Shown here: one piece after another, positions 13,902 through 38,120 of the stretch | Layout of the letters: each line of letters begins with the position of its first letter | Numbering within the stretch: position 1 is the stretch's first letter | IMG/VR virus record: IMGVR_UViG_3300034102_003113 | Reading direction: 5' to 3' (one strand) | Length of the DNA stretch: 64,000 bases | Source of the DNA: a virus | Program-made: the position numbers and the translations under genes | Notes under the pieces: generated by a model | Databases searched by the model: none | The model's input: only the letters and a program-made list of their open reading frames with translations | What the model was told of the DNA's origin: nothing

Positions 13902-16712
13902 ATGGCGTATCTTGGCAACGATGTAGACTCGATTTTTATTCCAGGTAGTGTTAATACCTCAACAAGCCTGACGATTACAGGAGGAGGACTGACTCAGACA
14001 GGTGGTGATGTCAACTTTGATAGCGGGACATTATTCATCGATGAGGATCTTAATAGAGTTGGTATTGGAATTACCAGTCCATCTAACAATTTACACGTAT
14101 ATTCCTCTGCATCGACATCAACTCTCATAGAGTCTACAAATTCTTCTGGATATTCTACATTTGGGGTAAAATCTGGGGATATTGAGGCTCTATTATATGC
14201 AAGTTCTGCGGAAAACGCAATAATTTTAAGAAATAATAGCAATACAACTGCTGCCGCGTTGGCACTTGCAGCAACTAGGAGTAGTGGTGCTGATCTTACA
14301 ATTTTCAGAAGTACAAGAAACGTAGTTATTGGAAATAATCCAACAGAAGCATCTCAGACGGGGACTGCGGGTCAAAAATTACAAGTTCAAAGTGGTGCTT
14401 ACTTTTCTGGCAATGTAGGTATTGGCACTACCAATCCGGTATCAAAATTGGATGTTAATGGAAAGGTATCAATTACCCCGCCAACTTCTCTACCAACAAC
14501 ATTAGATACTGGTTTTAGTATTACAAATACTTCCACAAAAACCTATCCATCAACAACGCCCTTTCAGGTCACTCCTGGTTTGCACCAAGACATTCAGATC
14601 GGCACAAGCCAAACAATTCCATCTGGTGCTGGCGTTGGAACTATTCGTGGCATTTACAATAGACTTATAAAAAATGACGGAACCACCACAAACCTTTCTG
14701 GGGTAGGTGTTGTTGGTACAAGTAACATCATTGAATGGAGTGACGCAAACTTAGCAGCCAATTACTCGGGCATTCAAAATCTTTTAACTATATCTGGCAC
14801 AAATATTAGTGGCAATAGTACAAATTTAACTGGTGTAGTTAACAGTGTAAATGTCACAAATCCGAGTAATACTTCTATTGCCATAGGACTCTCAAACGGG
14901 ATTAGTTCAAATCTAAACTTAGGTACTTACGGATCGACTTCTCAAACAATATCTATTACCACTCATGCGGGAGTTGTTTCAGCAATACAAGCTCCACACA
15001 ACCAAGTTGGAAAGAACCTGAACATTGCGACAGTTTATGGCTTCAGATCATTTCTCTCTTTTGGTGGTAACTTTTCAGGATATGATGGCAGCAACTGTGT
15101 TACTACTATCAGCAATCTATATCATTTTGAAGGGACAGGGTATCTAGGATCGTTAGGCACTGGATCCACGACTACGATTACAAATCTATATGGACTATTC
15201 CTTGGCGCTCCAACAACACATGCTGGAACCACAATTACAAATAACTGGGGCATTTACCAGAACTGGGGTACTGCCAAAAACTACTTTGCTGGGAACGTTG
15301 GTATTGGGACGAATAACCCCCAGCAAGCCCTTCACGTTTTTCAATCCGGTGGTAATGGATTTGTTGGAGTCAGAGCCCAGAACAGCAATAGTGGTATAGG
15401 CACTGCTGGTATTGAATTTTCATCCGACGTAACGTACGCAAAAGCTGCAATAGCTCAGATTCGTGGTGATGCAAATGGCAAAGGCGACTTAGCGTTTTAC
15501 ATTGACTCAAGCAATGACGCCGCAAACTGGTCGACAGATGATGAAAAAGTCCGTATCGATAGCTCCGGCAGGTTGTTGGTGGGGACAACTCTTGCGCGTG
15601 CAAACTTCTATAATGGTGCTAATACTGCGCGGATTCAACTAGAGGGAACCAACTACCAAAACGCTGCTTTTGCCATCGTTTGCAACGCAAACTCTAATGA
15701 CAAAGGTTCCCTAATTCTTGCCAAGAATCGAGGCACAACCATTGGCTCAAATACAATCGTTCAAGATGGCGACGACTTGGGCTCAATTGAGTTTCAAGGG
15801 TCCGATGGTGCCGAGTTTGTTCAGGCTGCAAATATCAAGGCCGAAGTAGACGGCACCCCCGGCGCTAACGACATGCCGGGCCGTTTAGTGTTCTCCACTA
15901 CCGCCGATGGAGCGAGCAACCCGACTGAGCGGATGAGGATTACGTCGGGAGGAAATGTTGGCATAGGAACCACAAATCCAATAGCGTTTTCTGGTCAAAC
16001 ACATCATACCGTTAATTATTCTGGAGATGGAACACAGGTTTCTGGATATAATTTAATGGTGAATGGTACAAGATATGCTTCATTCATATCTTATCCAAGC
16101 AATTCGGAAGCGTTGAGGATTTCCTCTCATTCAACTAGTCTTCCGATGATTTTTCAGACGAATGACCAGACAAGAATTACAATTAAAGCAGATGGAAATG
16201 TCGGTATAGGAACCACAAATCCATCACAACCATTGCATGTTATAGGTAATGTAAGAATTGGTGCATCTTCTAGTGGTTCTCAATATTCAACTTTATCAGT
16301 TTTTGGGGACACTTCTATACAATCTGCTTCTCCTCTGTTAAACATGACAGTTGCAGATGGTTCTAATAGACTAGCATATATTTCTCATTCTGGGATAGGA
16401 AGTAATCTTTATATTTTAAATCAACAAAATAGTACTCTTAGATTTGGAACCAATAACCAAGAGTACTTGATTTTATCTACAACTGGAAACTTTACTCCAA
16501 GTTTCGATGCAACTCAAAATCTTGGTTCTCCCTCAGCCCGCTGGGCCAACATTTATTCTGCTGACCTTCAACTATCCAATGAAGGCTCCGACGGGAATGA
16601 TGTTGATGGGACATGGGGTGCCTATACCATCCAGGAGGGTGAGGAGAACTTATATCTCATTAACCGGCGATCTGGTAAGAAGTTTAAGTTTGTATTAGAA
16701 GAGGTTAAATAA
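13902..16712 (+). CDS. Tail fibre protein with GNVGIGT repeats
   Basis: MAYLGN start, five (G/R)xVGIGxxxP repeats, and a C-terminal DLQLSNE...VDGTWG.YTIQEGEENL domain typical of cyanophage fibres. Confidence 0.85.
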   Translation: MAYLGNDVDSIFIPGSVNTSTSLTITGGGLTQTGGDVNFDSGTLFIDEDLNRVGIGITSPSNNLHVYSSASTSTLIESTNSSGYSTFGVKSGDIEALLYASSAENAIILRNNSNTTAAALALAATRSSGADLTIFRSTRNVVIGNNPTEASQTGTAGQKLQVQSGAYFSGNVGIGTTNPVSKLDVNGKVSITPPTSLPTTLDTGFSITNTSTKTYPSTTPFQVTPGLHQDIQIGTSQTIPSGAGVGTIRGIYNRLIKNDGTTTNLSGVGVVGTSNIIEWSDANLAANYSGIQNLLTISGTNISGNSTNLTGVVNSVNVTNPSNTSIAIGLSNGISSNLNLGTYGSTSQTISITTHAGVVSAIQAPHNQVGKNLNIATVYGFRSFLSFGGNFSGYDGSNCVTTISNLYHFEGTGYLGSLGTGSTTTITNLYGLFLGAPTTHAGTTITNNWGIYQNWGTAKNYFAGNVGIGTNNPQQALHVFQSGGNGFVGVRAQNSNSGIGTAGIEFSSDVTYAKAAIAQIRGDANGKGDLAFYIDSSNDAANWSTDDEKVRIDSSGRLLVGTTLARANFYNGANTARIQLEGTNYQNAAFAIVCNANSNDKGSLILAKNRGTTIGSNTIVQDGDDLGSIEFQGSDGAEFVQAANIKAEVDGTPGANDMPGRLVFSTTADGASNPTERMRITSGGNVGIGTTNPIAFSGQTHHTVNYSGDGTQVSGYNLMVNGTRYASFISYPSNSEALRISSHSTSLPMIFQTNDQTRITIKADGNVGIGTTNPSQPLHVIGNVRIGASSSGSQYSTLSVFGDTSIQSASPLLNMTVADGSNRLAYISHSGIGSNLYILNQQNSTLRFGTNNQEYLILSTTGNFTPSFDATQNLGSPSARWANIYSADLQLSNEGSDGNDVDGTWGAYTIQEGEENLYLINRRSGKKFKFVLEEVK

Positions 16713-16715
16713 CCC

Positions 16716-18014: not shown

Positions 18015-18017
18015 ATA
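18011..18017 (+). promoter_or_regulatory. CTAAATA, T4-like late-promoter-type site
   Basis: 20 nt upstream of ATG 18038, followed by an AGGAG RBS. Resembles the T4-type TATAAATA box. Confidence 0.4.
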
Positions 18018-18037
18018 ATACAGGAGAATAATAAACA

Positions 18038-20422
18038 ATGCCTAATCTTATTGGAACTGGTAATAATCAAGTCCCAACAAATGGAATGTTGGGTGGATTG
18101 GCATACCAATCTCCTGATAATGCAGTCATCAAAACTCTAGAACTTACTAATTTATCGGGCCATAATTCAGTAATTCCAAGTAATGCTATAGATGTTTTTG
18201 TGTATGATACTCGCAAAGACTCTGATGGTGGGCAATGGCGCAAGCGCACACAACATACCTCTTGGTACAATGAAACACTAAATACCGAAATTCGTGGAAG
18301 TCGTAGAGATTTTCCTGCGGTTGCTGTGATTGTTGCTACTACTACCACCATAACGATTTATGACGGCGATGATCCTGATATGCCAATGTGGATCGTTATA
18401 GCCAGAAATCCTGGAACTCTATTTTTAACAGATGGATATTCATGTTTAATTTCATCTATAACTGCATTAAATGGCATAATAAGTGTTGGTATTTATGCCA
18501 CAAATGAAGTTGGATACTATGGCGGATTAATTACTTTAAATCTTGTAAAAGATATAGGATTTAAATATGGGGGGAATAGTATTTTCTATAGCGGTAGAGG
18601 TAGTTATGGAACAAAACTTCGTGATATTGTTAACCCAACTTGGTATCAATTATTTTTATCTCCTAGTACATTTAGTCTTGTAAGCGGATATACAAATGAC
18701 GTGGCAATGACAGTGCTTCCAAATGCACCCATTGATAGTACTACGGGTCTTCCAGTTCCTACGATTGTTGTTGCTACTACTAGTGGTGTTAATATCATCA
18801 AGGATGATGGGACCATTATAAGTTGGTTGACAACAGTTGGTAATGTTAGTCGAGTATCAATATCAAAAAATTATGAAATCTTTGCCGGTGGTGGGGGTGG
18901 TATTGCATTTTATGCCTGGTATAATAAAACAATTCCAACATTATCTTCAAATAATTCTGATGCTATTTTTGGAACATTATATTCTTCTACATCATTACCA
19001 AGACTAGGTTCTAATGGAAATAGTGTTGTAGGTGATAAAAGTATATTTTCAAATGATACCATATATTTTTCTGAATACGCAGGTATCTCAACAAATGACA
19101 AATTAATCATACTCAATCAAAATACTTCACATTTTGGAAATAGTTTGGTTGCGTATCTTACTTCATCTTATAACACAGGATGGATGTACGGAGACATCAA
19201 AGGTGCTTTTCTGTCTGATACAAGTACTGCAAGTGTGACTGGAACTGAACTCGTTACAAATGGAACTTTTATTAGTGATGCAAGTGGATGGACTACAACT
19301 GGGGTGAGTTCTTCAGTTTCAAGTGGCAGATTACGAATTACTAATACAACAGTAACAAATGGAGAAGTGTATCAAGGATTTGCAACTCAAGTAGGTAAAA
19401 AATATGTTTTAACATTAGAATGTTATAGCGGAACAAGTAATGCATCATTTTTTATATCAAATGCTGCTCCCGATAACTACTTAGGAGATTTGGGATATGT
19501 AAGTCCTGCATCTGGTTCCTATACTATGTACTTTACTGCGTCTGCAACTACAACCTATTTAAGATTAGAAAATGTTAATACTCCTATTGGCGCGTATTCG
19601 GAATATGACAATATTTCAGTCCGTCTTGTCGAACCAGACCGCAGTGTAAACAACAAAGGACTTGCAGTATACGGAACCATCACTAAGACTCCTGTTGCAA
19701 CTGGTTCAAATCTGGTTGCCTATAGTGGATGGTCCAACTCCAATTATTCGCTCAGACCGGCAGGTGTTACTGACTTAAATAATTCCTCAATGACATTTAT
19801 GAGTTGGTATAAAGGAGGTAGTTATGCTGGAGAAGAAGTTATCGTAAGTACTGGAGATTATGGTAGTGCAAGTGAAGTTAGAAGTATATATTTAACCCCT
19901 AGTGGAGTTCCTGGATTTGCCGGGTGGAGTAATGATTATAATCCAGGTAATAGTATTAGGGATAATACTTGGCATTTTATATGTGTAGTAATTCAATATG
20001 TATCAGGAACAACTTATAATATTTCTGTATATGTGGATGGAGTTCTAACGGGCACAACTAGTAAGTCTTTATCTACATTTACAAATACGGCAATAAATGT
20101 TGGTGGGGGGTCTATTCCAGGAACATATTTTGCCAATGGTTCTTTATCTTTAGTTAGAGTTTCAACAACAATTCCATCTCCAGAACAAATCAAAAAAATC
20201 TATGAGGACGAGAAGGCCCTCTTCCAATCAAATTCACAGGCCACCCTTTTTGGCTCTTCGGATATCGTCACGGCCCTGGCCTACGATGATACAACATCGC
20301 TACTTCACGTGGGCACATCGTCGGGCCGTTCTGAGTTTAAAGGACTGAAAAGAGTGGGTAATACCACAACCGCAGTGACCACATCCATCTCCGCCTCAAA
20401 TGGCCTTGTAGCAGAGCAATAA
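18038..20422 (+). CDS. Tail fibre/receptor-binding protein with CBM-like and LamG domains
   Basis: ELVTNGTF...W...YDNISV carbohydrate-binding-like domain, then a LamG pattern WHFICVV...VYVDG...EQIKKIY. Confidence 0.75.
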   Translation: MPNLIGTGNNQVPTNGMLGGLAYQSPDNAVIKTLELTNLSGHNSVIPSNAIDVFVYDTRKDSDGGQWRKRTQHTSWYNETLNTEIRGSRRDFPAVAVIVATTTTITIYDGDDPDMPMWIVIARNPGTLFLTDGYSCLISSITALNGIISVGIYATNEVGYYGGLITLNLVKDIGFKYGGNSIFYSGRGSYGTKLRDIVNPTWYQLFLSPSTFSLVSGYTNDVAMTVLPNAPIDSTTGLPVPTIVVATTSGVNIIKDDGTIISWLTTVGNVSRVSISKNYEIFAGGGGGIAFYAWYNKTIPTLSSNNSDAIFGTLYSSTSLPRLGSNGNSVVGDKSIFSNDTIYFSEYAGISTNDKLIILNQNTSHFGNSLVAYLTSSYNTGWMYGDIKGAFLSDTSTASVTGTELVTNGTFISDASGWTTTGVSSSVSSGRLRITNTTVTNGEVYQGFATQVGKKYVLTLECYSGTSNASFFISNAAPDNYLGDLGYVSPASGSYTMYFTASATTTYLRLENVNTPIGAYSEYDNISVRLVEPDRSVNNKGLAVYGTITKTPVATGSNLVAYSGWSNSNYSLRPAGVTDLNNSSMTFMSWYKGGSYAGEEVIVSTGDYGSASEVRSIYLTPSGVPGFAGWSNDYNPGNSIRDNTWHFICVVIQYVSGTTYNISVYVDGVLTGTTSKSLSTFTNTAINVGGGSIPGTYFANGSLSLVRVSTTIPSPEQIKKIYEDEKALFQSNSQATLFGSSDIVTALAYDDTTSLLHVGTSSGRSEFKGLKRVGNTTTAVTTSISASNGLVAEQ

Positions 20423-20425
20423 CCC

Positions 20426-22308: not shown

Positions 22309-22340
22309 TCTATGAAGAAACGTAGGAAAGAGCGCAGCGC

Positions 22341-25300
22341 ATGGCCTATTTAGGAAGAAATCCGGCAATTGGAACGCAAAAGATGCTCGATTCGCTCGAG
22401 TCGCAGTTCAATGGCGTCCTTACCACCTTCAACCTAAGGTTCAACGCCCAACCAACCTACCCAACTCTCTCAGCCTCGCTCATAGTCTCCCTTGGAGGCG
22501 TCCTCCAGGAACCCGGGCAGGCCTATTATGTATCATCGGACACAATTGTGTTTTCCGAGGCGCCCGCCGCTGGGACGGATTGTTGGATCCTGCTCTATAG
22601 TGAGTATGGGGCTGGTATCATCCCCGACCAACAAGGGAATTTTGGCGCTGCTACTCTGACACTTACCGGGGAACTCCGTGGCCCCAGCACCTTCATCATC
22701 GATCCGGCGGTAGTGGGTGATGATACGGGGGACGTGGTTATTAAGGGTAACCTGACCGTCCAGGGTGCCACCACCACAATTAACTCCACAACGCTGACAG
22801 TTGACGATAAGAATATAGTCCTTGCTGATTCAGCCTCGCCGACCGACGCCCTAGCAGATGGAGGCGGCATAACGCTGAAAGGCACCACGGATAAAACGAT
22901 TAACTGGGTCGATGCCACAGACGCTTGGACAAGTAGTGAGCGATTTAGTTACCCTTTGGGTAGCGCTACTGCTCCGGCGCTAACTTTCACTGGCGATCCC
23001 AACACCGGCATCTATTCCCCTGGCGCAGACCAAGTAGCCATCTCGACTAATGGCACTGGGCGGTTGTTTGTTGATGCGAGTGGCAGGATTGGTATTGGGA
23101 CGACGAACCCTAATGGAACTTTAGAGGTCGCAAATGGTGATGCATACATTACCAAAAACTCTGGGGGTGATGCTGGGGGCGTCACGTCCCAGTCTCTTTA
23201 CATAAGAACGCAGAGCGGAAATCTTGCTCGCCTGTACTCAATTAGTTCTGGAAGTGGAGGTCCAAATGGTTTTGGGGGAACTCTTTATATTCAAACTAAG
23301 GTTGATAACGGAAGCCTTGCTGATCACGTTGTTATTACACAGGCTGGCTTGGTGGGTATTGGGACGACGAGTCCCAGCGAGAAGGTCACTATTGGGGCAG
23401 GCTTGGAGACAGGGAGGCAATATCTTCGTCTTAATTTTTCCAATACAGATACATACATCGGACAAAGTAACGGAACCATATTTGGTCTTACTTCTGGCAA
23501 TGGTAGTTTTATTGTCTCTGACGCTGGAGTACCTCTTGGTGTTGGCACAGTAACAAGTCAGTCTCTGATTCTAGGTACAAACGGCCTAGAACGCGCTCGC
23601 ATCGACAGCTCCGGCCGCGTTGGCATTGGCATTACTAACCCAAGCGAGTTACTACATGTAAATGGAAACCTTGCGTTAGATAACGCTGTGCTTAACACGC
23701 CCAAGTACATCAAGTTTAATGCAAACGCAATCGGAAATCCCTATGGAGGAATTACATGGTACAATTATCAATGGGACTCCACCAAGCGAGCCGAGATCTC
23801 TTCTGGTCCTGATGGTGCTGTAGCCGCTGGCTATCTTGCTTTTTCCACGGGGTCCGGTGGTATAACCGAACGCCTCCGCATCACCTCCGCTGGTAATGTT
23901 GGTATTGGCACAGATAATCCAACTGCAAAATTAGAAGTTTCAAATTCTTCTGGAACAACTGGAATTTTAATATCTAATAATGTCGCAATATCACTCAAAG
24001 ACTCAACTGGAGCTGCTAGAAGAACAGCTTTACTGAGTGATTCTAATAATTTTTATTATGGAGATGTAGATAATGCAACATCCGGTGGAAATTTATTTTT
24101 ACTATCAAAAGGAAATATAAATTTCTTTAATAATGGAACAAATAATGTAACATTTAGTTCAACCGGATTTGTCGGTATCGGAACGGCAAATCCAACTGCA
24201 AAATTAGATGTCAGAGGTCCTGCTTATTTTGTAGGATCAAATACAAACAGAAGCACTACAATTGACACTAGCGTTTATATCAAAGGTGAATTGGGTGGAT
24301 GGGTCGAAGGTTATTATTTCAGAGGTTCTAGTAATACCAACCTAGGCGGATTTGGTATATACGGAAACAATGACACAACCGCGTATTTTTGGATAGGACC
24401 ATCTTATTCTTCTCCGTCATTAGTAATAGCTTCAAATGGAAATGTTGGAATTGGAACAGCCAGCATTGCAGAAAAATTACATATACACAATCCAGATACC
24501 GGATTGGCTGCAATTAGATTATCTGGTTCAGCTGGTTCACAGACCCCGTATAACATCCGACAGGGTGTAGTCGGTGTTTCTAATGGGGGATTTAGTATTT
24601 GGGATGTTACTGCGGCGGCTACTAGATTTGCAATTGATTCTGCTGGAAATATTGGTATTGGTACTGATGCTCCAATAGATAAATTACATGTATCAGGCGG
24701 ACAAACTAGAATATCCTCTAGAGCAAAAACTCTAACTGGTGATATTTTAGTACTATCCACTACAGAATCGGCTAACCGCATGGAATTACTAATTTCACAT
24801 GCGGCAACTAATTACCATAGAATTCAATCTGTGCATCAGGGCGTGGCATATACTGCGCTATGTTTGCAAAATGATGGCGGAAATGTTGGAATCGGAGTAA
24901 CAAATCCGTCAGAAAAACTTGAAGTTAATGGAAATCTAAGGGTAACTTTAGATGCTGGAAGTCAAAAAAACGTTGCAAGGATAGTAGAATTAGGATACTC
25001 GGGAATTACTGGAGCAAAAAATTGGGCACTTAGGGGAGTTTATCAACATCCATCTGGTGTTAGTGTTAATGCAGATGGTGGAGATTTGGATCTTATCAAA
25101 TCTTTAAATGGAAATACCATCCTTGCAACAAAAACTGATGGAACTGCACTTGGTAATGTTGGCATAGGGACCACAAATCCAACTTCAGCTCTTCATGTAA
25201 TTGGCAGTGGCACTTTTACTGGATCGGTTTCTGCTGCAGGAACTAGTGGATTTTACAGTAGTACGTTTGCAAATAATGTAAGAAACCCCATCTGGAGATT

Positions 25301-27503
25301 TGCAAATGCTGATGGTTATGGACTTAGTTATTTCCAAGGTAGTGCAGGAGTAAGTCCGGCAGGGGGCGGAGATACTATTGGTTTCCATTTTGGAACTGCA
25401 ACTGCTGCGGCATCTCTTCTACAATTAAATAATGGCCATGGTGCAGTTGTTAATGGTAATTTTGCTGCAACTGGAAATGTTGGCATCGGTACAACAAATC
25501 CAAGTGAAAAATTATATGTAGTTGGCACTATCGTCGGGGCTAGTAATGACAATTATTTCGGCAATTTTTCATCTGGAGCATATGTAGACATTGGCAATTT
25601 AGCCACAACTGAGGCATGGATAGATACTAGAAGTTCTTCTCTTGCTACTGTTGATCTCAACATGCGAACTAAGGGAAATGGGCAGATAAAATTTATAACG
25701 GGTGTTGAAGAGCGTCTTAGAATTACTGGAGCTGGAAATGTCGGCATAGGAACCACAAATCCAGAAATGGCTCTTCATGTATTTACTCCATCTGACACTG
25801 TTCCAGTAAGAATTGCAAGCAATGGTGGAGATTCTTCCATCGGATTTAAAGCTGCAGCAGATGCATTAACCTACAATACGAGATGCGGTTCATATCAAGG
25901 TGCTGGATTTGGCATTTGGACTGCAAATACTCTTAGATTTGTGTTAAATAATAGTGGGTACGTTGGAATTGGAACCAATAACCCAACCGCAAAATTAGTT
26001 GTTGATGGAGGAGGGCCAAGTTCAATTGCTTTTAGAGACGACTCTATTGAAAACCATAAGTCCGACTCTGATTCAGCCGCATTAGTTCTCAATTACTATG
26101 GATTGAATGGAGGAACAAGTAGGTTTAGAGACGTTGCTATCTATAATGGTAAGGGTGGATTTATTTCTATTTTTGATGGATCCAGTGGTAATGTCGGTAT
26201 AGGAACCACAAATCCACTTTCTAAACTTCATATAACAGGTCAATTACAAACAGCAAACCCATCTACATATTCAGCAATTACAGGTATTGACTATGGAAAC
26301 AGTTATCCAATTTACTGCACTGAAGTAAATGCCGGTTCTGGTGGATTTACTCCTTTCATACTACAAAGAACGGTTGTTAATAGCGGATATAGACAAATTT
26401 TAAGCATTGGTTCTTATAGAGCAAATGGTGGTAGTTATACTGGAGGTGCTTATATTGCACCTGGAGGAGGAAGTGATTCTAGTCCGACTGATTATTTCTT
26501 ATTCTCATACCAAGGTTCTCTGAGTTACAGTGGAGGAACAATCTCTTTCCCTGGACAGATTCAATCGACCCAAGGAAACAATGCTGCAACTGGTGGTGGT
26601 CAAATATACCTGAATGGGTCAACAGGGAATAGAATTGACTTTAATACTAGCGGTGTTGCTCCACCGGCCCTTGTTGGGACTGGAGGTGCTACCCGAAGTG
26701 CTGGAACCAAGATCGTGTTATATCCTGGGGGTTCTCCTTCTTACGCTGATGCTGGATTTGGTATTGAAGATAATACTTTATGGTCCTCCATTTGGGGTAC
26801 AGCACATCAATTCAAATGGTACGCAGGGACTACTAATATCGCAACATTAACTGGTGGTGGTAACCTAACTGTTACTGGAGAAATTCAAGCAACACTCTTT
26901 AGAGATTATAATGATAATAACTATTACGTAAATCCTGCAGGTACAAGTAGATTAAATACTCTGAGAATTTTTTCTAACTCTAGCGCTGATTGGGACGCAA
27001 TACAAATCTCTACTGACGGAGTTAGTGGATTAATCCAGGGTCTTGGTGATGAAGTCGGATTGAAACTAAGGTCTGAGTTAGGTAATATCATTCTTGCCGA
27101 TGATAGAGGTAATGTTGGCATCGGAACCACGAACCCAGCGTACAAACTCGAAGTTAACGGGTCATTCGCCGCCACTACGAAGTCCTTTGTAATCCCCCAC
27201 CCGACTAAGGAGGGCTATCGCCTCCGCTACGGAAGCCTCGAAGGCCCTGAGAACGGCGTCTATGTTCGTGGCAGAAGCAAGGTTTCTGTTATCGAGTTAC
27301 CTGAGTACTGGACAAAGCTCGTGGACCCAGACTCCATCACGGTGAACCTTACCCCGATAGGCAAAACTCAGACGCTCTGGGTTGAAAGCATTGAGGAGAA
27401 TACGGTGTATGTTGGATCAGAGTGCTCCGAGGTGGAGTACTTTTATACGATATTTGCCGAACGAGCTGATGTAGATAGACTAGAAGTAGAACTGGAGGGA
27501 TGA
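22341..27503 (+). CDS. Long tail fibre protein (1720 aa) with 14 GxVGIGxxxP repeats
   Basis: N-terminal FNG..TTF.L...LGGVLQEP anchor, a repeat array, and a C-terminal TKSF.I.HP...L.Y.SLEGPE chaperone-like domain. Confidence 0.9.
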   Translation: MAYLGRNPAIGTQKMLDSLESQFNGVLTTFNLRFNAQPTYPTLSASLIVSLGGVLQEPGQAYYVSSDTIVFSEAPAAGTDCWILLYSEYGAGIIPDQQGNFGAATLTLTGELRGPSTFIIDPAVVGDDTGDVVIKGNLTVQGATTTINSTTLTVDDKNIVLADSASPTDALADGGGITLKGTTDKTINWVDATDAWTSSERFSYPLGSATAPALTFTGDPNTGIYSPGADQVAISTNGTGRLFVDASGRIGIGTTNPNGTLEVANGDAYITKNSGGDAGGVTSQSLYIRTQSGNLARLYSISSGSGGPNGFGGTLYIQTKVDNGSLADHVVITQAGLVGIGTTSPSEKVTIGAGLETGRQYLRLNFSNTDTYIGQSNGTIFGLTSGNGSFIVSDAGVPLGVGTVTSQSLILGTNGLERARIDSSGRVGIGITNPSELLHVNGNLALDNAVLNTPKYIKFNANAIGNPYGGITWYNYQWDSTKRAEISSGPDGAVAAGYLAFSTGSGGITERLRITSAGNVGIGTDNPTAKLEVSNSSGTTGILISNNVAISLKDSTGAARRTALLSDSNNFYYGDVDNATSGGNLFLLSKGNINFFNNGTNNVTFSSTGFVGIGTANPTAKLDVRGPAYFVGSNTNRSTTIDTSVYIKGELGGWVEGYYFRGSSNTNLGGFGIYGNNDTTAYFWIGPSYSSPSLVIASNGNVGIGTASIAEKLHIHNPDTGLAAIRLSGSAGSQTPYNIRQGVVGVSNGGFSIWDVTAAATRFAIDSAGNIGIGTDAPIDKLHVSGGQTRISSRAKTLTGDILVLSTTESANRMELLISHAATNYHRIQSVHQGVAYTALCLQNDGGNVGIGVTNPSEKLEVNGNLRVTLDAGSQKNVARIVELGYSGITGAKNWALRGVYQHPSGVSVNADGGDLDLIKSLNGNTILATKTDGTALGNVGIGTTNPTSALHVIGSGTFTGSVSAAGTSGFYSSTFANNVRNPIWRFANADGYGLSYFQGSAGVSPAGGGDTIGFHFGTATAAASLLQLNNGHGAVVNGNFAATGNVGIGTTNPSEKLYVVGTIVGASNDNYFGNFSSGAYVDIGNLATTEAWIDTRSSSLATVDLNMRTKGNGQIKFITGVEERLRITGAGNVGIGTTNPEMALHVFTPSDTVPVRIASNGGDSSIGFKAAADALTYNTRCGSYQGAGFGIWTANTLRFVLNNSGYVGIGTNNPTAKLVVDGGGPSSIAFRDDSIENHKSDSDSAALVLNYYGLNGGTSRFRDVAIYNGKGGFISIFDGSSGNVGIGTTNPLSKLHITGQLQTANPSTYSAITGIDYGNSYPIYCTEVNAGSGGFTPFILQRTVVNSGYRQILSIGSYRANGGSYTGGAYIAPGGGSDSSPTDYFLFSYQGSLSYSGGTISFPGQIQSTQGNNAATGGGQIYLNGSTGNRIDFNTSGVAPPALVGTGGATRSAGTKIVLYPGGSPSYADAGFGIEDNTLWSSIWGTAHQFKWYAGTTNIATLTGGGNLTVTGEIQATLFRDYNDNNYYVNPAGTSRLNTLRIFSNSSADWDAIQISTDGVSGLIQGLGDEVGLKLRSELGNIILADDRGNVGIGTTNPAYKLEVNGSFAATTKSFVIPHPTKEGYRLRYGSLEGPENGVYVRGRSKVSVIELPEYWTKLVDPDSITVNLTPIGKTQTLWVESIEENTVYVGSECSEVEYFYTIFAERADVDRLEVELEG
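23082..27137 (+). repeat. Array of about 30-nt in-frame repeats encoding GNVGIGTxNP
   Basis: Repeat starts at 23082, 23346, 23613, 23892, 24165, 24438, 24645, 24879, 25152, 25473, 25734, 25956, 26187 and 27108. Confidence 0.85.
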
Positions 27504-27507
27504 TCTC

Positions 27508-28755
27508 ATGTCACTAGGACACTCACCATCTATTGTTACCAACGGATTAGTTCTTTGCTTAGATGCTGCGAACTACAAGAGTTTTAAGGGTGTTAACGCA
27601 ACTAATGTTTTAAACTCTATAGCCTATACTCAAGGCAATGTCAATAACTCTTTATACAAATACATCCAAGGTTCTGAAAATGTTAATATACCATCAATTG
27701 GGTATGTAAATTGTCCCTATGTGGATATTTACAATGACTATAATGGCGGTTCTGGAAATTGTTGTCCTAACTTATTCTCGTATGGAACCTCACTATCAGT
27801 TTCTCCAAATACAACATACACATACTCAATAATTTATAAAACTACCACAGGGTACAGTAACCCAAACTACATGTATCGGTATGAATATACAAGTAGTGGT
27901 GCTTATGCTGGAGAAGCTGGAGTACATAGCACCAGCAACAGAACATCCCTAGGGGACGGTTGGTGGTTTGCTTGGGGTCAATTTACTACTGGTCCGTCAA
28001 CAGCGATTCTAAATACTTACCTATTTCATTATGAATATGCAACACAAAACCGAGTTTATGTCTATCGTGCCGCATTATACCAGGGAACATATATAATCCC
28101 ACCAGAGCATATGCTCAATGTTGGTCAGGTGAGAGGAACCACCGTGGCAACAGGCGGTGGTTGGGCAGATTTAACTGGTACTAGTAATCATGGTGAATTG
28201 GTAAATGGACCAACTTATAATAGTTCCAATGGTGGTTCTTTGGTTTTTGATGGAAGTAATGATATGATTATTATTCCCGAAAACTCAGCACTAAATACTC
28301 AGACACCATCAGTTGAAGTTTGGGTAAAAACAAATGCAACCACACAGAATGGATTTTGGTTTGAAAAGGGAACTGTAAACACTCAATACTCATTATTCCA
28401 AGAAGGTGGTGTTATACAATGGAGACAAAATTTTAGTGGTAGTGGTACTACTAACTTAAGTACAACAACTGCAACTTATATGAACACCTCAAATTGGTAT
28501 CAAGTTGTTGGAACTTTTACCTCTGGAGCAAGAAGATTATACATTAATGGCGTTTTAGTTAATTCAGACACTCAGGGCGGGACAATTACTACTAATGCGA
28601 ATGGTATGTCTATAGGTGTTTATGGGGGATTCAATGGTAGTAGAGGATATTATTATAATGGAAATATTTCTGCAGTAAAAATTTATAATAAAGAACTAAC
28701 AGCGGCAGAAGTTCAACAAAATTTTAATGCAACCAGAGGGAGGTTTGGAATCTAA
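27508..28755 (+). CDS. LamG/ConA-like protein with inserted domain
   Basis: GLVLCLDAAN...FDGSND...WYQVVGT...LYING...QQNFNA.RGRFG. Confidence 0.85.
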   Translation: MSLGHSPSIVTNGLVLCLDAANYKSFKGVNATNVLNSIAYTQGNVNNSLYKYIQGSENVNIPSIGYVNCPYVDIYNDYNGGSGNCCPNLFSYGTSLSVSPNTTYTYSIIYKTTTGYSNPNYMYRYEYTSSGAYAGEAGVHSTSNRTSLGDGWWFAWGQFTTGPSTAILNTYLFHYEYATQNRVYVYRAALYQGTYIIPPEHMLNVGQVRGTTVATGGGWADLTGTSNHGELVNGPTYNSSNGGSLVFDGSNDMIIIPENSALNTQTPSVEVWVKTNATTQNGFWFEKGTVNTQYSLFQEGGVIQWRQNFSGSGTTNLSTTTATYMNTSNWYQVVGTFTSGARRLYINGVLVNSDTQGGTITTNANGMSIGVYGGFNGSRGYYYNGNISAVKIYNKELTAAEVQQNFNATRGRFGI

Positions 28756-30512
28756 TGGCAGTAGCATATAACCCACAAACAGCAACAAACGGACTCGTAT
28801 TCTCATTTGATGCAGCGAATCAAAAGTGTATTTCTCCATTAGGTTGCACAGGATTCAATACTGCACCACAACTTGTAAAGAATTTGATGTCTCAGTCTGA
28901 TGCAATTAATTCTTACAATGGAGTTAAACTCGGTAACCTTAGTTACTATACCGCTTTTGCTATTAATTATCCCGAAAGTTCTTTTGGTGGTGATGCTGCA
29001 AGTAGAGAAGGAATAACTCCAGGATATAATGTTAGAAGTGGAACTAAACTTTTTGATTATGAAAGAGCATTGAACTACGCAGTTTATAATAATCCAACAC
29101 AATCTTGGGTAAAAACTACAGTTTATGATACATATCTATATGCCTCAGAAGTCGATAGATTTGTTACTGAGTATGCAACTGCTGTAGCTACGTACCCAGA
29201 TGCTGTTCATATTGTTGCTGGTTCACACAGAGATTCATATCATAATGCTGCACAATATAATATTTTAAGAGATTTAGGTGCTCCAAGTAATGTGGATTCA
29301 ATTATTGGATTTGCTTCTCCAGAATGGATTTTAGTTGGAAAACCTGGATTGGGTGCAGGAAATGCTTATGGGTGGGTATTTGAAAATTATTCTACAAATC
29401 CAACCGAAGTTGCTCACTTAAATTTTGGATTGCCGATTTATGGTGGTACTGGCAATTACTTAGAGTTTGATGGTGCGGATGATTTTATCACAACTTCAAA
29501 TACTACAATAGCTGGAAGTCAAACATTTTCTGTTTGGATGTCAGTTGGAACAACAACTCCAAATGCTCCCGCTGGAGTTCTTACTCAACATAACTATGCT
29601 TCCACTGCTAATTTTGGAATTAATCATGTTGCAGGAAATAGACTTGCTGCTTCAATTGGTTATACAAATGATACTAGAGAATATGATAATAAATATACAA
29701 CATTTACCCCTACAGTAAATACTATTTTTAACGCAGTTTTAGTATATAATGCAGGAGAAAATAAAATTTATTGGTACATAAATGGGTCTTTAGATTCATC
29801 ATATACATTACCAGCAACTCCAAAATCAACAAACTATCCAATTTGTCTTGGTAGATGGGATGCTGGATACGGTGCTTATTATTTTAATGGAAAAGTATAC
29901 TCGGCAACAATACATAATACAGCACTTACTGCAGACCAGATCAAACAGAACTTTAATGCATTAAAGGGTAGATTTACATATGAACAATTAACTTATATTA
30001 TAAGTGGAAATTTAACAGTAACTGGAAATGGAACTGCAAATGTAAATATATTTAAAACCTCTGGGTCGAGTTCTTGGGACAATCAAGCATATAGCACAAC
30101 CTCATTTACTGCACCTTGCACTATAGAGTTTAACAAACAAGCGGAATCTGCAGATTATGGTACAGCTTACGCTATGATTGGGTGGAATGAAGATCCAACT
30201 GCAAATGCAAGTTATGCTAGCATAGATTATGCTTCCTATCCTTATGCCACTAGTAATTACCAAGTATATCACAACGGATCTCTAGTTCAAAATGGAGGAA
30301 CCTGGAGTACATCAAATAGGTTCTATATTGTCTATGGAACTGATGGTTTCATAAGACATTATAATGGTTCTACATTACTTTATTCCGTTAATTATGGTAC
30401 AGGAAGAACTGTATATGTTGATAGTAGTTTTTATTCTGTTAATTCTACATTTGGTGGATTTTCCAATATTAAAGTAATTAGATCTACTTGGAACGGATCT
30501 TCTTATGTTTAA
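28755..30512 (+). CDS. LamG/ConA-like protein with ILEI-like insertion and extra C-terminal domain
   Basis: LamG frame as in its neighbours. The insert contains HIVAGSHRD...LRDLGA...WILVGKPG. Confidence 0.8.
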   Translation: MAVAYNPQTATNGLVFSFDAANQKCISPLGCTGFNTAPQLVKNLMSQSDAINSYNGVKLGNLSYYTAFAINYPESSFGGDAASREGITPGYNVRSGTKLFDYERALNYAVYNNPTQSWVKTTVYDTYLYASEVDRFVTEYATAVATYPDAVHIVAGSHRDSYHNAAQYNILRDLGAPSNVDSIIGFASPEWILVGKPGLGAGNAYGWVFENYSTNPTEVAHLNFGLPIYGGTGNYLEFDGADDFITTSNTTIAGSQTFSVWMSVGTTTPNAPAGVLTQHNYASTANFGINHVAGNRLAASIGYTNDTREYDNKYTTFTPTVNTIFNAVLVYNAGENKIYWYINGSLDSSYTLPATPKSTNYPICLGRWDAGYGAYYFNGKVYSATIHNTALTADQIKQNFNALKGRFTYEQLTYIISGNLTVTGNGTANVNIFKTSGSSSWDNQAYSTTSFTAPCTIEFNKQAESADYGTAYAMIGWNEDPTANASYASIDYASYPYATSNYQVYHNGSLVQNGGTWSTSNRFYIVYGTDGFIRHYNGSTLLYSVNYGTGRTVYVDSSFYSVNSTFGGFSNIKVIRSTWNGSSYV

Positions 30513-30515
30513 CAT

Positions 30516-30533: not shown

Positions 30534-30869
30534 ATGTACAAATCAAGAAATTTTATAATCTTCTCAGTAGAAGAAATCAACAAAATTGACTTTAATTCTG
30601 TTCTAGAAACGTCACCAGATACTTTGAGAAGATCTGCTGATGGGACTAAAACTTTTGTCAAATGGGATCAGGCACCATTTGATCCGACTCCATATACAAT
30701 TATAAATGCAGAGACAGGTGAGGAACAAACTATTATTCCACAAGAACCCACTCCACCAAGTTTTATAAATGATCTTCAAACAAAAGAAGGTCCTTATACA
30801 TATGAAGAAATGCTGGCGATTTTAAATGGTCCAGAATGGACTGCACCTATGCCAATGGGAGAGGAGTAA
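30534..30869 (+). CDS. Small phage protein accompanying LamG genes
   Basis: IDF..VLETS..TLRRS.DGTKTFVKW...YT.EE.L.IL..PEW pattern. Confidence 0.75.
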   Translation: MYKSRNFIIFSVEEINKIDFNSVLETSPDTLRRSADGTKTFVKWDQAPFDPTPYTIINAETGEEQTIIPQEPTPPSFINDLQTKEGPYTYEEMLAILNGPEWTAPMPMGEE

Positions 30870-30870
30870 A

Positions 30871-32466
30871 GTGGGAGTTTATTCAGGGCCTGATATAAAC
30901 GAAAATGGGTTAATTTTGGCATTTGATGGTGCCAACTATAAAAGTTTTAAAGGTGAAGGAACCATTAATTTAATTCCATCTCCAACAATTAATGCATATC
31001 CAACAACTGGAAATGGTTGGGGAAGTTATAATACAAATCAATATGGTTCAGGAACTTATTTTTCTATTGGAACTGTAAGTAATGTAACAAATAATATCAT
31101 TACGATGACATCTGCTCATTCGTTAAGAACCTATGATGTAATGCAACCACAAACAACTGGTGGTGGAGTAAATGCGGGAGTTAATTATTTTATAAAGAAA
31201 GTATCAAGTACTTCATTTACTCTTCATGCATATAATAGCTCTCAAGATGGTTCTCAAGGATACATAAGTTCATCCACAGGAACTCATAAAGTTTATGATA
31301 GTATTGCAAATGACGTAAGAGTACCAGTAAATTCCTCAAGTTTTCCTACGATGTGGTGGGGGTATCCTCACTTACCAAACTCTGGTCTTGTGAAAGAATT
31401 AAGATACGGTGAGTTTAATGCAATACCAAATCTTCCAGCAAATGATTGTATTCGTCTTCATTACATAAGAACCGACGGAGTTATGGATGGGATGTCATAT
31501 GGAGTAGATTGTTCAATAACCCCAGGTTCTCCGGTCACGGTATCTTTTTACACCAGAGCAGCAAATGCAAACGCTGTTGGTAAACAGATTCAGTATCAAA
31601 TTTATAATTATACTGGAGGAAGTGCTACTTGGTCTGCTTGGAATTTTACCTTAGGTGCGCTTGGGATGTGGGAAAGGCAAACTTTTACATACACTCCCGC
31701 ATACGCAAATATGATTTCTTACTGGTTTGCTGCGAGTGTCGGCGTGTATGCCTGGGATTGGTCTTGTATGCAGGTAGAGCAAAAGTCTTATTCTACTAGC
31801 TTTGTTGCTGGTACAAGAGGTACTACTATAGCAACAGGTGGTGGTTGGGCAAATTTAACTGGAAGTGGAAATAATGCAGAACTTATAAATGGAGTGAGAG
31901 AGAGCAATGATAAGTTGGGATCTTTAAGTTTTGATGGAATGGATGATTATGTGAATTGTGGGGCATTATCTGGGTCATTTTCCTCATTTACAATAATTAC
32001 TTGGTTCTATCCAACAGTGGTTGCCAACTACAATAATGTATTAGATTGCAATTCAGGTTATTATTCGTCTGGAAACGTAGGACCAAGATTGGAGATGAAT
32101 AGTTCAGGCACTCTTGGCTGGGTATATTCAAACAACACTGGAAACAATAGTGAATTTTATTCCCACAATGTGATAAATAGTGGATTAGCAGCAAATACTT
32201 GGCATTGCGCTGCGATAACATATAACGGAGGAGCAAATACTTCAACAACTTACTATAACGGAAATGCAACTGGAGTGACTAGAAGTACATCTGGAAGTCC
32301 AATTGGATTTGCCGGTACGTTTAATAATTTAAACATCGGAAGAGGGTTTTTTAATGGTAGGTATTTTCAGGGAAGAATATCTCAAACACAGATATATAAC
32401 AGAACATTGACAGCATCAGAAATCCAACAAAACTTCAACTCCCTCAGGGGGAGATTCGGTTTATAG
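30871..32466 (+). CDS. LamG/ConA-like protein with inserted domain (GTG start)
   Basis: GTG at 30871 follows a GAGGAG RBS and the upstream stop, and aligns with the N-termini of its paralogs. WHCAAITY and QQNFNSLRGRFG motifs. Confidence 0.85.
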   Translation: MGVYSGPDINENGLILAFDGANYKSFKGEGTINLIPSPTINAYPTTGNGWGSYNTNQYGSGTYFSIGTVSNVTNNIITMTSAHSLRTYDVMQPQTTGGGVNAGVNYFIKKVSSTSFTLHAYNSSQDGSQGYISSSTGTHKVYDSIANDVRVPVNSSSFPTMWWGYPHLPNSGLVKELRYGEFNAIPNLPANDCIRLHYIRTDGVMDGMSYGVDCSITPGSPVTVSFYTRAANANAVGKQIQYQIYNYTGGSATWSAWNFTLGALGMWERQTFTYTPAYANMISYWFAASVGVYAWDWSCMQVEQKSYSTSFVAGTRGTTIATGGGWANLTGSGNNAELINGVRESNDKLGSLSFDGMDDYVNCGALSGSFSSFTIITWFYPTVVANYNNVLDCNSGYYSSGNVGPRLEMNSSGTLGWVYSNNTGNNSEFYSHNVINSGLAANTWHCAAITYNGGANTSTTYYNGNATGVTRSTSGSPIGFAGTFNNLNIGRGFFNGRYFQGRISQTQIYNRTLTASEIQQNFNSLRGRFGL

Positions 32467-32489
32467 GTATATAAGATAGTGCTGGAAGA

Positions 32490-33170: not shown

Positions 33171-33178
33171 GGTGCACT

Positions 33179-34105: not shown

Positions 34106-34107
34106 GC

Positions 34108-34362
34108 ATGGCGCACTTTGCTAAATTAGACGAGAACAACAAAGTAGTCGAAGTTATTGTGGTATCTAACGATGATATCGTTGATGAAAATGGAGAAGAA
34201 AACGAAGAGATTGGTATTCAATTTTGTAGAAAGATTCAAGGAGAAAATACTAACTGGAAGCAAACCTCGTATAATGGAAACACTAGAGGAAGGTATGCTG
34301 GCATTGGAATGTATTACGATGAAATAATTGATGAGTTTGTTATTCTTGCCGGAGATGAATGA
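34108..34362 (+). CDS. Small partner protein of the Gly-rich fibre gene
   Basis: MAHFAKLDENN.V..VIVV...WKQTSYN...YAGIG..YD...D.F pattern. Confidence 0.75.
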   Translation: MAHFAKLDENNKVVEVIVVSNDDIVDENGEENEEIGIQFCRKIQGENTNWKQTSYNGNTRGRYAGIGMYYDEIIDEFVILAGDE

Positions 34363-35700: not shown

Positions 35701-35750
35701 ATTGTTAAATATTCCACGTTATATGGGAGATAACCGCTCCGTGACTTTGA

Positions 35751-35758
35751 GTTTAAAG
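35751..35758 (+). promoter_or_regulatory. GTTTAAAG putative late promoter
   Basis: Exact intergenic motif 37 nt upstream of ATG 35796, with TAGA 6 nt downstream. Confidence 0.65.
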
Positions 35759-35795
35759 TGATACTAGAAATACAGCAGTAATCAGAGTTTGCTCC

Positions 35796-38120
35796 ATGGC
35801 CCTTACTCGTATCGATTCATACCTCGTCGACCTAGATTCACTCGGAGGGATTACCTTCGATGACCAGGCGGGGACCCCGACGTTTAAAGTCGATGCGGTT
35901 AACCATAGGGTGGGGATTGGGATTGCGAGTCCAATAACAAAATTAGATGTTAGGAATGGAGTAATCACTACTGGTTCTAATCAATCCACAGATGGGTCCG
36001 AACTTTTAAGAGGATATTATTCCGAGGGGGCACTAACAGTTATTGGATCTGAATATAGTAGTGGTGGCCCAGTTATTGGATACGCCGTAAAGCCATCTAC
36101 TTCTGCAAATGGGGCGTTCTTAAGTTCTACTTCTATTACGGTTGGTAGAGGTGCATATTCAATAGATGGCAATGCTCATCGTTGGTATGGGGGAAGTGTT
36201 CAGACTGTTGCTGAAAATAGTTCAGTGACCACAAACGAAGTGATGAGAATCTCTTCGAGCGGTAATGTTGGTATTGGTACTAACAATCCTACTCATAGGT
36301 TAGTAGTTTACGGAACGGCACAGGCCAATGAAATAAGATCGTCTGATGGCACAGTAACTTCCCAGTGGTATCAAGATAGTAGCGGATTTGGTGTATTCGG
36401 AACAACTAGCAACCATCATCAGATATTCAGGACTAATGGTTCTGAGAAAATGAGAATCAGTAGTGGTGGTTATGTTGGAATTGGAACGTCAGGACCACTC
36501 GATGCTTTACACGTACATGCGGCTGGATTCGATATTGTCGGTGGCAATGCCATCAATGGCCAGACTATGGCCGGGATTAAAGTAACAAATTCACAAAACA
36601 CCGATTCTTCTGTCGGGATATGGTTTGGTACTACAACAAGTCATTGGAGCGGGATAAGTGGCCAAAGGTCTAATTATCTCAGTAACTGGGGAACAGATTT
36701 AAGATTCTACACCCATGAAGATGCTACGAATGATCTGACTTATACAAGAGAGCGCGTTCGTATAACTTCAAGTGGTAATGTTGGCATAGGAATCACAAAC
36801 CCGGCAACTAAGTTAGAAACGTCTTTAATAGTTCAGGGGCAGGGAGCAGAAAGATACACTCCAGTAGATGTTTTATCTATCAGTGCAGATAACCCAGGGG
36901 CTACTGTATATGGTGGATTTGGTCAAGGACTTGTGTTTAGAGGAAGGTCTTATAACGCCTCGACATACAGACCCCTTGGAAGAATTCTTCATAGGATATG
37001 GGATGATTCTATTAACACAACTTTAGGAAGTAGTTTAGAATTTCAAACATCAAATAATGGTTCCGTTGCCGCTGAACCAACTACAAAAATGATTATTGGT
37101 TACAATGGAAATGTCGGTATAGGCACCACAAACCCTGGGGTGCCTCTAGATGTCAAAGGTATCGATAGTTTGATAAGGGCCTCGGAGGCGGGGAGTGGCA
37201 CAGCATGGAGGTCCCGAATCATCTCCCAAAACCCCGACGGCGCAGTTCAACGAGCATCATTCTTAGGAATCTATGGCACTAGTGCCGGAGTTTTTGCCCA
37301 TAACTCCACATTAAATGGCTGGGCGCCATTGTTTGTAAACACTACCAACGGATCGAGTGATGGCGATAATGTTATATTAGCCGGTTCTGGTAATGTCGGC
37401 ATTGGCACCGTAAACCCACAAGTCCCCCTGACTATTCGCTCTGTTCACGCCACCGCATCAGCTACGACTTACACAGGCGCCCTTCTCATCCACGACGAAC
37501 CTAACGGAGTCCAGCCACACCTAGGCGCTGGAGTATCCTATAATGGCGGGTTTCAGCACTCCTGGATTCAAAGCAACAGTGCTTCCGGCGTGTATCCTTT
37601 AGCATTAAATCCGGCCGGAGGCAATGTAGGTATAGGAACCACAAATCCAACATCAAAGTTACATGTGCAGGGAAATGCAGTAATAACTGAAAAACTCACA
37701 TATGGTTCAATGAATAGAGTATCTCTCTCTATTCAAACTATTCCTACATCGCCTAGCAATGTGCAGTATCTACATATCAGTAGGTTGTCAAATAACAGAG
37801 TTGCTGGAAAAGTCCAAATATGGATATACGGAGAATGGGGAGGACAACAAACTGGTAACGGATTTAACTACTATGAAGCAATGTGGATGAGTTTTAATTA
37901 TATAGGTCCAGGAGCTTATTCAAAAGAACTTCAAGCTAATATTGACGTTGGGGGTAATACAGGTACAGGAGTTACAGGAGTTACTGTCTCCACAACAGAA
38001 GATGAAATTATTTATGCAATAGCATGTAATTGGTACGGCGAGATTGCATGCATTATTGAATGGCATGGAAATGATAATCTTCAGTATGTTTTAAATTCGA
38101 CCTCTACTAATGTATTTTAA
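35796..38120 (+). CDS. Tail fibre protein with 7 GxVGIGxxxP repeats
   Basis: Repeats at about 35907, 36261, 36468, 36774, 37107, 37389 and 37620, followed by a unique C-terminal tip. Confidence 0.85.
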   Translation: MALTRIDSYLVDLDSLGGITFDDQAGTPTFKVDAVNHRVGIGIASPITKLDVRNGVITTGSNQSTDGSELLRGYYSEGALTVIGSEYSSGGPVIGYAVKPSTSANGAFLSSTSITVGRGAYSIDGNAHRWYGGSVQTVAENSSVTTNEVMRISSSGNVGIGTNNPTHRLVVYGTAQANEIRSSDGTVTSQWYQDSSGFGVFGTTSNHHQIFRTNGSEKMRISSGGYVGIGTSGPLDALHVHAAGFDIVGGNAINGQTMAGIKVTNSQNTDSSVGIWFGTTTSHWSGISGQRSNYLSNWGTDLRFYTHEDATNDLTYTRERVRITSSGNVGIGITNPATKLETSLIVQGQGAERYTPVDVLSISADNPGATVYGGFGQGLVFRGRSYNASTYRPLGRILHRIWDDSINTTLGSSLEFQTSNNGSVAAEPTTKMIIGYNGNVGIGTTNPGVPLDVKGIDSLIRASEAGSGTAWRSRIISQNPDGAVQRASFLGIYGTSAGVFAHNSTLNGWAPLFVNTTNGSSDGDNVILAGSGNVGIGTVNPQVPLTIRSVHATASATTYTGALLIHDEPNGVQPHLGAGVSYNGGFQHSWIQSNSASGVYPLALNPAGGNVGIGTTNPTSKLHVQGNAVITEKLTYGSMNRVSLSIQTIPTSPSNVQYLHISRLSNNRVAGKVQIWIYGEWGGQQTGNGFNYYEAMWMSFNYIGPGAYSKELQANIDVGGNTGTGVTGVTVSTTEDEIIYAIACNWYGEIACIIEWHGNDNLQYVLNSTSTNVF

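Follow-up and report, generated by a model that had tools for sequence, protein, structure and literature searches.

How can the tail fibres of a phage be mosaics of unrelated segments without losing their trimeric fold? The question is raised by a 64,000-nt stretch of viral DNA (IMG/VR record IMGVR_UViG_3300034102_003113), hereafter the window, which covers 64 kb of a genome of about 149 kb and in which three tail fibre genes, here called g1, g2 and g3, carry a 30-nt in-frame repeat between stretches of dissimilar sequence. A preliminary description made from the letters of the window had proposed that the repeats are frame-preserving crossover sites serving a shared pool of modules. Our comparisons with related viral contigs, protein databases and solved structures support this proposal by the positions of the junctions, by the lack of collinearity among relatives and by codon usage. 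We consider it likely that the shaft units between repeats (beads), the N-terminal anchors and the C-terminal tips of these fibres are exchanged by general homologous recombination at the repeats, which encode the capping loops of the beads.

The repeat and the fibres that carry it

The repeat has the consensus GNVGIGTxNP, in most copies followed by xxKLxV. A frame-aware scan for xx[VI]GIGxxxP returned 26 copies, the number first estimated, with 5 in g1, 14 in g2 and 7 in g3. All 26 are direct and lie in the same codon phase, and the minus strand holds no copy except one chance match. The exact 18-mer noticed at the outset was found again at 15963, 16206, 25746, 26199 and 37632, i.e. in all three genes; allowing up to three mismatches it has 11 matches, against 0.09 expected. 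The identity of the copies at 16194 and 26187 over 27 of 30 nt (bases 4–30) and the spacing of the repeats in g2 (207–321 nt, plus one gap of 921 nt) were likewise as first described. Five other viral contigs (L180, L183, L188, L235 and L255) each hold three to five exact copies of the 18-mer within one fibre region, so other genomes, too, have the junction in several identical copies. No published mention of the string GNVGIGT was found.

All three products were called tail fibre proteins by PHROGs (phrog_9942, phrog_18345), and a portal gene at 6857–8791 lies in the same virion gene block. Pfam assigned no family to g1, g2 or g3 and gave no match to a C-terminal Peptidase_S74 chaperone in them; PF13884 (S74) is present in many database relatives of g1 and g2.

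Searches with phmmer against solved structures matched residues 651–806 of g2 to the Bdellovibrio fibre Bd2133 (8OND, E 9e-9), other fibre stretches to 8OJN (E 1.4e-5) and 8OML (E 4e-4), and residues 844–935 of g1 to the fibre gp28 of cyanophage P-SCSP1u (8I4M, E 2.9e-23). In the passages of PMC10769870 that concern them, the Bdellovibrio MAT fibres are described as intertwined trimeric beta-helix domains closed by capping loops with the consensus V-G-G/N-pi-x-x-P-x-x-x-L, and the same loops are noted in T5 pb1 and K1F endosialidase. VGIGTxNPxxKL fits the consensus given in those passages. The only module type modelled with homologues was residues 456–700 of g1 (63 homologues), for which AlphaFold predicted a structure with a predicted local distance difference test score (pLDDT) of 81–94 across the second half. 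Foldseek matched this model with probability 1.00 to Bd1334 (8OML, E 1.3e-9), Bd2439 and Bd3182 (hits 8ONF and 8ONC) and T5 pb1 (4UW7, E 6.5e-5). On the strength of the phmmer, consensus and Foldseek matches, the repeat is first of all a structural element, namely the capping loop of serial beta-helix fibre domains, predicted to be trimeric, and the stretches between repeats would be beads of one fold.

The modules had been called mutually unrelated. This holds for their sequences: with the motif removed, module interiors show no pairwise similarity (mean Smith-Waterman z of 0.12, equal to controls), and off-register BLAST hits between modules result from the periodic motif. It does not hold for their fold, since all of them are, by the matches above, putative beta-helix beads. 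The third module of g1 (m3), a widespread fibre domain whose model matches the MAT and T5 pb1 fibres, contains a degenerate mid-module copy of the loop (IDSSGRLLVGT, 15540–15575, residues ~548–558) that is almost invariant in 64 homologues, and large modules are therefore probably two or more beads with degraded motifs.

Most homology block ends and mosaic junctions lie at the repeats

Breakpoints were mapped by DNA homology to three related contigs (L388, L389 and L390), which gave 18 informative block ends. Sixteen of these lie in a repeat or at most 12 nt from one, against 2.7 expected (0 of 50,000 randomisations), and the breakpoints are thus not random relative to the repeats. The closest relative found, L388, has the same gene order and 87–93% identity in the flanking genes, and the sole blocks it has in common with g2 are 23890–24193, 24426–24668, 25217–25502 and 25732–26216. 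The contig L390 has another backbone and has 22338–23083, 24171–24457, 26186–26878 and 27108–28277 in common with the window. The fifth module of g3 and its counterpart in L389 correspond from repeat to repeat, with >99% identity inside and random identity beyond both sides. Homology to L389 upstream of g1 continues through the first repeat of g1 and stops just after it, and about 30 high-scoring segment pairs to viral contigs terminate at 15940–15973, at the fourth.

The most direct junctions come from L390 and L392, two contigs from different samples whose identity is 99.97% across 7329 nt and 99.8% across 3792 nt. A 333-nt bead in one, lying between these stretches, faces an unrelated 214-nt bead in the other. 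On the left the junction lies inside a repeat (after G-R-L-G-V-G-T-S), and on the right it coincides with the first base of the following repeat (G-R-V-G-I-G-T-T-S-P), so that this natural module swap, like the block ends above, maps to repeats.

Gain and loss of modules are evident among three backbone relatives from IMG/VR, L083, L082 and L081. The fibres at their g1 locus have 194, 215 and 807 aa, compared with 936 aa in the window, and carry 1, 1, 8 and (in the window) 5 repeat motifs; at the g2 locus the lengths are 369, 887, 1093 and 1720 aa, with 1, 3, 7 and 14 motifs. In these relatives, at least two types of tip combine variously with two types of anchor. The two closest of the IMG/VR backbone relatives, L081 and L082, are mosaic to each other outside the fibre genes as well, where blocks of 94–96% identity alternate with blocks of 72–79%.

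The regular beads have almost no relatives among 387 fetched loci, and the shared bead pool was found when 5.8 billion proteins were searched. There, single modules recur at 66–100% amino acid identity in fibres that differ in module order and in anchor. Protein P0004 contains beads 4, 6, 9, 11 and 12 of g2 (80–100% identity) with other beads interspersed; the order of g2 beads is permuted to 6-13-9-12 in P0006 and to 9-6-tip in P0027 and P0058. Combinations across the three loci also exist: P0041 joins a g1 anchor (93%) to beads 7 and 9 of g2 and bead 5 of g3, P0051 joins bead 6 of g2 to bead 5 of g3 (98%), P0215-type proteins carry a g1-type anchor with beads 2 and 3 of g3, and P0172 and three others carry a g1-type anchor with the g2 tip. 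With fibre lengths that differ, orders that are permuted and beads that stand under other anchors, the relatives are not collinear.

A wider view of the region comes from L389, in which conserved flanks (77% to 9392–14074 and 38123–38787) enclose just 7.3 kb (4683–11974) with one 1851-aa fibre, whereas the corresponding 24 kb of the window (14074–38123) hold three fibres and some 15 further genes. All of 14074–38123 behaves as a variable fibre island.

Synonymous sites, base composition and competing explanations

Codon bias does not account for the DNA of the repeat. Under the codon usage of the window, each IGTTNP copy would carry the 18-mer with a probability of about 0.0016, and it is seen in 5 of 11 such copies; Thr-Thr is written ACC-ACA in 7 of 12 motif copies and in 13 of 132 cases elsewhere (P = 1.8e-4). 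An external sample not ascertained by window DNA, comprising 141 motif copies in 96 other viral open reading frames (ORFs), departs from the codon usage of its own genes at every tested position and favours another preferred DNA version than the window copies, the second Gly being GGG in 45% of the external copies versus 9% (p = 3e-48).

A second conserved element, a 53-nt box, ends 10 nt upstream of the fourth repeat of g1. Its consensus is found exactly in at least 120 viral stretches and at least 92 unique contexts, and identity in its flanks becomes random within 60–90 nt. Among the matches listed, the left flanks form 83 clusters and the right flanks 78; several left flanks are each paired with more than one right flank, and the converse was also found. 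The flank clusters of the box and of the 18-mer alike contain the same segment with different partners on each side. In loci not chosen by DNA, 10 of 16 copies of the box lie within 3 nt of the consensus, and the codon identity to the consensus is 0.80. The box and the repeats are also present in cultured Synechococcus phages, among them podoviruses of the S-CBP1, S-CBP3 and S-CBP4 types. We found no published mention of the box peptide. RNA structure as a reason for the conservation of box and repeat DNA was considered and rejected, as no fold signal was obtained (z = 0.41).

Base composition changes along the genes, and the shifts previously noted at about 15290–15945 and past 27108 are real. 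Segmentation by GC content at third codon positions (GC3) placed the strongest change points at residues 517 and 1593 of g2 and 683 of g1, next to repeats at residues 518, 1590 and 684; overall, 6 of 12 change points lie within 10 residues of a repeat (P = 0.0075). The GC-rich block that ends at 23890 is without counterpart in L388 and is partly common to L390 and podovirus-like contigs. The g2 tip has 93% amino acid identity to P0020 and P0024 and 66–72% to L082 and L083, and is replaced in L081. A GC-rich stretch is also present in g3 at 37107–37620. Outside g1 and g3, the stretches 13300–13900 and 38200–38650 are GC-rich (0.50–0.56) and without a large ORF, and 13217–14020 is conserved in L083 at 69%.

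We propose the following mechanism. The three genes would encode trimeric tail fibres whose shafts are strings of beta-helix beads, each sealed by a capping loop. Because the loop is structurally required, sits in a fixed codon phase and is nearly uniform in DNA, it would form a short homology tract between otherwise unrelated beads. General homologous recombination, in mixed infection or with related DNA present in the host, would cross over within these tracts, and a few other conserved boxes would also serve as crossover tracts. Whole beads, anchors and tips would thereby be inserted, deleted or replaced with frame and fold kept. As no dedicated enzyme is indicated, the recombination would be passive.

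Several observations weigh against this reading. The block ends at 25217 and 26878 and the right end of the difference between L081 and L082 are not at repeats, nor are the GC3 change points at residues 448 and 877 of g1 and 300, 320 and 1701 of g2. Since every module has the motif in conserved form, alignments tend in part to end there, and, irrespective of mechanism, junctions at domain borders are what selection for intact domains would leave. At 18–30 nt, the identical tracts are also short. A single-sequence monomer model of residues 600–790 of g2 reached a pLDDT of 37 and was not used. Codon identity between motif copies is 0.44 within a genome versus 0.465 between genomes, only modestly above the expectation of about 0.37; since it is no higher within than between genomes, simple intragenomic gene conversion was rejected as the main cause of the 18-mer.

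The explanation that survives best beside homologous recombination at the repeats invokes structure only: illegitimate recombination would strike at random, only products joined at bead borders would fold, and the DNA identity of the repeat would be irrelevant. It draws on the structural nature of the repeat, on the junctions at other domain borders and on the modest overall codon identity. We nevertheless consider it unlikely, because the junctions seen with L390/L392, L389 and L388 fall within the few identical bases of the repeat and not merely near a border, and because synonymous sites in the repeat and in the 53-nt box vary far less than codon usage in the same genes would give, a uniformity that is beyond the reach of protein structure.

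Tandem duplication and deletion within the single genes, with interiors that then diverged fast and no exchange between genomes, would explain why module number differs between relatives, and direct repeats are able to promote slippage or unequal crossing over. We give this very little credence: the interiors are dissimilar within and between the three genes, the same modules (80–100% identical in amino acids, 90–98% in DNA) stand in other backbones and other orders, and GC3 differs sharply between adjoining modules.

The array of many identical short sites looks shufflon-like at first sight, and the preliminary description had spoken of a module-shuffling system. A shufflon or invertase, another site-specific recombinase or a retroelement using the repeats is nonetheless highly improbable. 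None of the copies is inverted, no recombinase or reverse transcriptase was detected among the 13 window proteins scanned with Pfam and the 13 scanned with PHROGs (in keeping with the initial remark that no recombinase was visible in the window), hundreds of unrelated viral contigs contain these junction sequences, and the variation consists of whole-module replacement, not targeted mutation. The term system in the sense of a dedicated apparatus is thus not upheld; nothing points to an enzyme of its own, and the pattern is the evolutionary one of general recombination. Equally improbable is that assemblers joined reads of different phages at shared repeats into chimeric fibres. All compared sequences are metagenome contigs and repeats are error-prone for assemblers, but the identical tracts fall below the length of the k-mers and reads usual in assembly, the g2 protein of 1720 aa occurs unchanged on 6 contigs from several samples, two samples gave contigs with P0020 and another gave P0024, and the box and repeats were also seen in cultured phages.

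Within the preferred reading of homologous recombination at capping loops, the DNA identity of the junctions would be a substrate of exchange rather than only its by-product. A more far-reaching reading, which we hold less likely than not, is that the uniform synonymous sites of the junctions are kept for their role as recombination substrate; population-specific dialects of the repeat DNA, and the recurrence of an identical box in at least 92 unrelated contexts, speak for it. Co-circulating phages of different morphotypes with a host in common might then exchange beads as one community whose linkers follow a shared code, and each bead might be a separate glycan-binding unit, so that the fibre would recognise receptors as a combinatorial array and would be more than an inert shaft bearing a single tip.

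Table 1. Fibre genes, repeats and associated features in the window. Repeats are numbered along each gene; L and P numbers denote viral contigs and database proteins.
Feature	Positions	Strand	Description	Basis
g1	13902–16712	+	fibre gene, 936 aa: N-terminal anchor, 5 repeats, P-SCSP1u gp28-like C-terminal domain	ORF, PHROGs, phmmer
g1-1	14052–14081	+	NRVGIGITSP; L389 homology stops just past it	
g1-2	14409–14438	+		motif scan
g1-3	15291–15320	+	GC-rich version; opens GC-rich module m3	motif scan, GC3
g1 m3	about 15290–15950	+	GC-rich module	GC3 0.48 vs 0.20–0.30 alongside
53-nt box	15888–15940	+	conserved DNA box in g1; encodes VFSTTADGASNPTERMR; 2 mismatches to consensus	
g1-4	15951–15980	+	exact 18-mer; GC3 falls (change point aa 683)	motif scan, GC3
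g1-5	16194–16223	+	exact 18-mer; P0123 homology (96%) begins	motif scan, alignment
GC-rich block	about 21700/21934–23890	+	upstream gene end, g2 anchor, modules 1–3	GC, GC3
g2	22341–27503	+	fibre gene, 1720 aa: N-terminal anchor, 14 repeats, C-terminal tip	ORF, PHROGs, phmmer
g2-1	23082–23111	+	GC-rich version; N-terminal-domain homology to >40 viral contigs and L390 stops	
g2-2	23346–23375	+		motif scan
g2-3	23613–23642	+		motif scan
g2-4	23892–23921	+	strongest GC3 change point (aa 517); L388 93% block opens (23890)	
g2-5	24165–24194	+	L388 block ends (24193), L390 block begins (24171)	
g2-6	24438–24467	+	L390 block ends (24457), L388 block begins (24426)	
g2-7	24645–24674	+	L388 and L389 blocks end (24668, 24664)	
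g2-8	24879–24908	+		motif scan
g2-9	25152–25181	+		motif scan
g2-10	25473–25502	+	L388 block ends (25502)	
g2-11	25734–25763	+	exact 18-mer; L388 block begins (25732)	
g2-12	25956–25985	+		motif scan
g2-13	26187–26216	+	exact 18-mer; L388 block ends (26216), L390 block begins (26186)	
g2-14	27108–27137	+	GC3 rises (change point aa 1593); tip block common to L390, L082 and L083 begins	
g2 tip	27108–27503	+	GC-rich tip	GC3 0.57–0.66
g3	35796–38120	+	fibre gene, 774 aa: 7 repeats	ORF, PHROGs
g3-1	35904–35933	+	L392 84% block (35795–35920) ends within it	
g3-2	36261–36290	+	P0215-type block (aa 152–341) begins	
g3-3	36468–36497	+		motif scan
g3-4	36774–36803	+	P0215-type block ends just past it	
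g3 m5	37107–37417	+	single module	97.7% DNA identity to module of L389 1851-aa fibre
g3-5	37107–37136	+	left edge of L389 97.7% block	
g3-6	37389–37418	+	right edge of L389 97.7% block (37417)	
g3-7	37620–37649	+	exact 18-mer; GC3 falls nearby (change point aa 600)	

Known systems, genomic setting and significance

The principle of fibre mosaicism at conserved boxes is already known from T-even fibres. Their distal fibre locus gp37/gp38 reportedly recombines at "His boxes", and there as here short conserved in-frame motifs flank variable segments and recombination swaps fibre segments. Unlike the T-even fibres, in which a few boxes lie in the adhesin tip, the fibres of the window repeat the capping loop up to 14 times per gene, and single shaft beads, anchors and tips are exchangeable over three loci and among podo-, myo- and sipho-type phages. 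Fibre segments are also said to have been exchanged among P2, Mu, P1, lambda and T4, which resembles the present case in that unrelated phages of one host share them; we know of no repeated junction motif or bead-by-bead exchange described for that group. Invertible fibre cassettes (Gin, Cin, Min) and shufflons likewise join alternative fibre segments at short conserved sites; they depend on an invertase with inverted sites and operate inside a single genome. Here, by contrast, the repeats are all direct and no invertase was present among the window proteins scanned. Long near-identical repeat pairs, such as the template and variable repeats with adenine-specific differences that are expected of a diversity-generating retroelement, were absent from 13000–39000, where variation is by whole modules.

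For conserved-motif recombination in T-even fibres PMC1079782 cites Tetart, Desplats and Krisch 1998 (J Mol Biol 282:543), and for exchange of fibre segments among phages it cites Haggard-Ljungquist et al. 1992 (J Bacteriol 174:1462). The closest structural counterparts, the MAT fibres of Bdellovibrio bacteriovorus (Bd2133, Bd1334, Bd2439 and Bd3182), resemble g1–g3 in sequence and predicted fold, in the capping-loop motif and in having chimeric tips. They differ in being bacterial surface fibres, and g1–g3 are without a signal peptide domain and without the S74 chaperone. The passages of PMC10769870 on these fibres describe chimerism of the tips at the protein level and contain no mention of shaft-bead exchange at capping loops at the DNA level. 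The L-shaped fibre pb1 of T5 and the stalk of K1F endosialidase (4UW7, 3GW6) are intertwined trimeric beta-helices as predicted for the present shafts, the g1 model matching 4UW7, but both end in a Peptidase_S74 chaperone that g1–g3 do not have. In the literature consulted, this scaffold, the resolution down to single beads and so broad a shared pool seem not to have been described.

The host of the phage is probably cyanobacterial. The best clue is that the 24 matches to the box region among 50,697 cultured phage records are all Synechococcus phages, with both small (35–47 kb) and large (167–209 kb) genomes. A 794-aa protein encoded between g1 and g2 (18038–20422) has no tblastn match in the 50,697 cultured phage records and 70 relatives in IMG/VR (29–53% identity), which places the backbone in an uncultured lineage. 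Adjoining g2, three adjacent genes (27508–28755, 28755–30512 and 30826–32466) have a common C-terminal domain (phrog_8510 in PHROGs); 28132–28209 and 31816–31893 within this trio are 78% identical in DNA, and the L388 orthologues contain Laminin_G_3. These genes look like further paralogous receptor-binding candidates. Towards the end of the window lie a PhoH-like gene on the minus strand (58672–59400, E 3.6e-54) and, on the plus strand, a gene for a large protein with a Peptidase_M23 domain (61346–64000). PhoH is frequent in marine and cyanobacterial phages.

How fibre mosaicism comes about without loss of the trimeric fold is an old question, and these genes offer its grammar at nucleotide resolution: one structural loop marks the joins of beads, anchors and tips, and between natural variants the difference is precisely one bead. 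The same beads are found in circulation among phages whose virions are unrelated. For annotation, the rule follows that giant "hypothetical" fibres can be split into units at their capping loops, and the junctions named here are natural and fold-compatible boundaries for structural and binding work on single beads. Tail fibres determine which cells a phage can attack. Exchange of beads would alter adsorption or host range, and would amount to a natural cut-and-paste rebuilding of the host-recognition apparatus.

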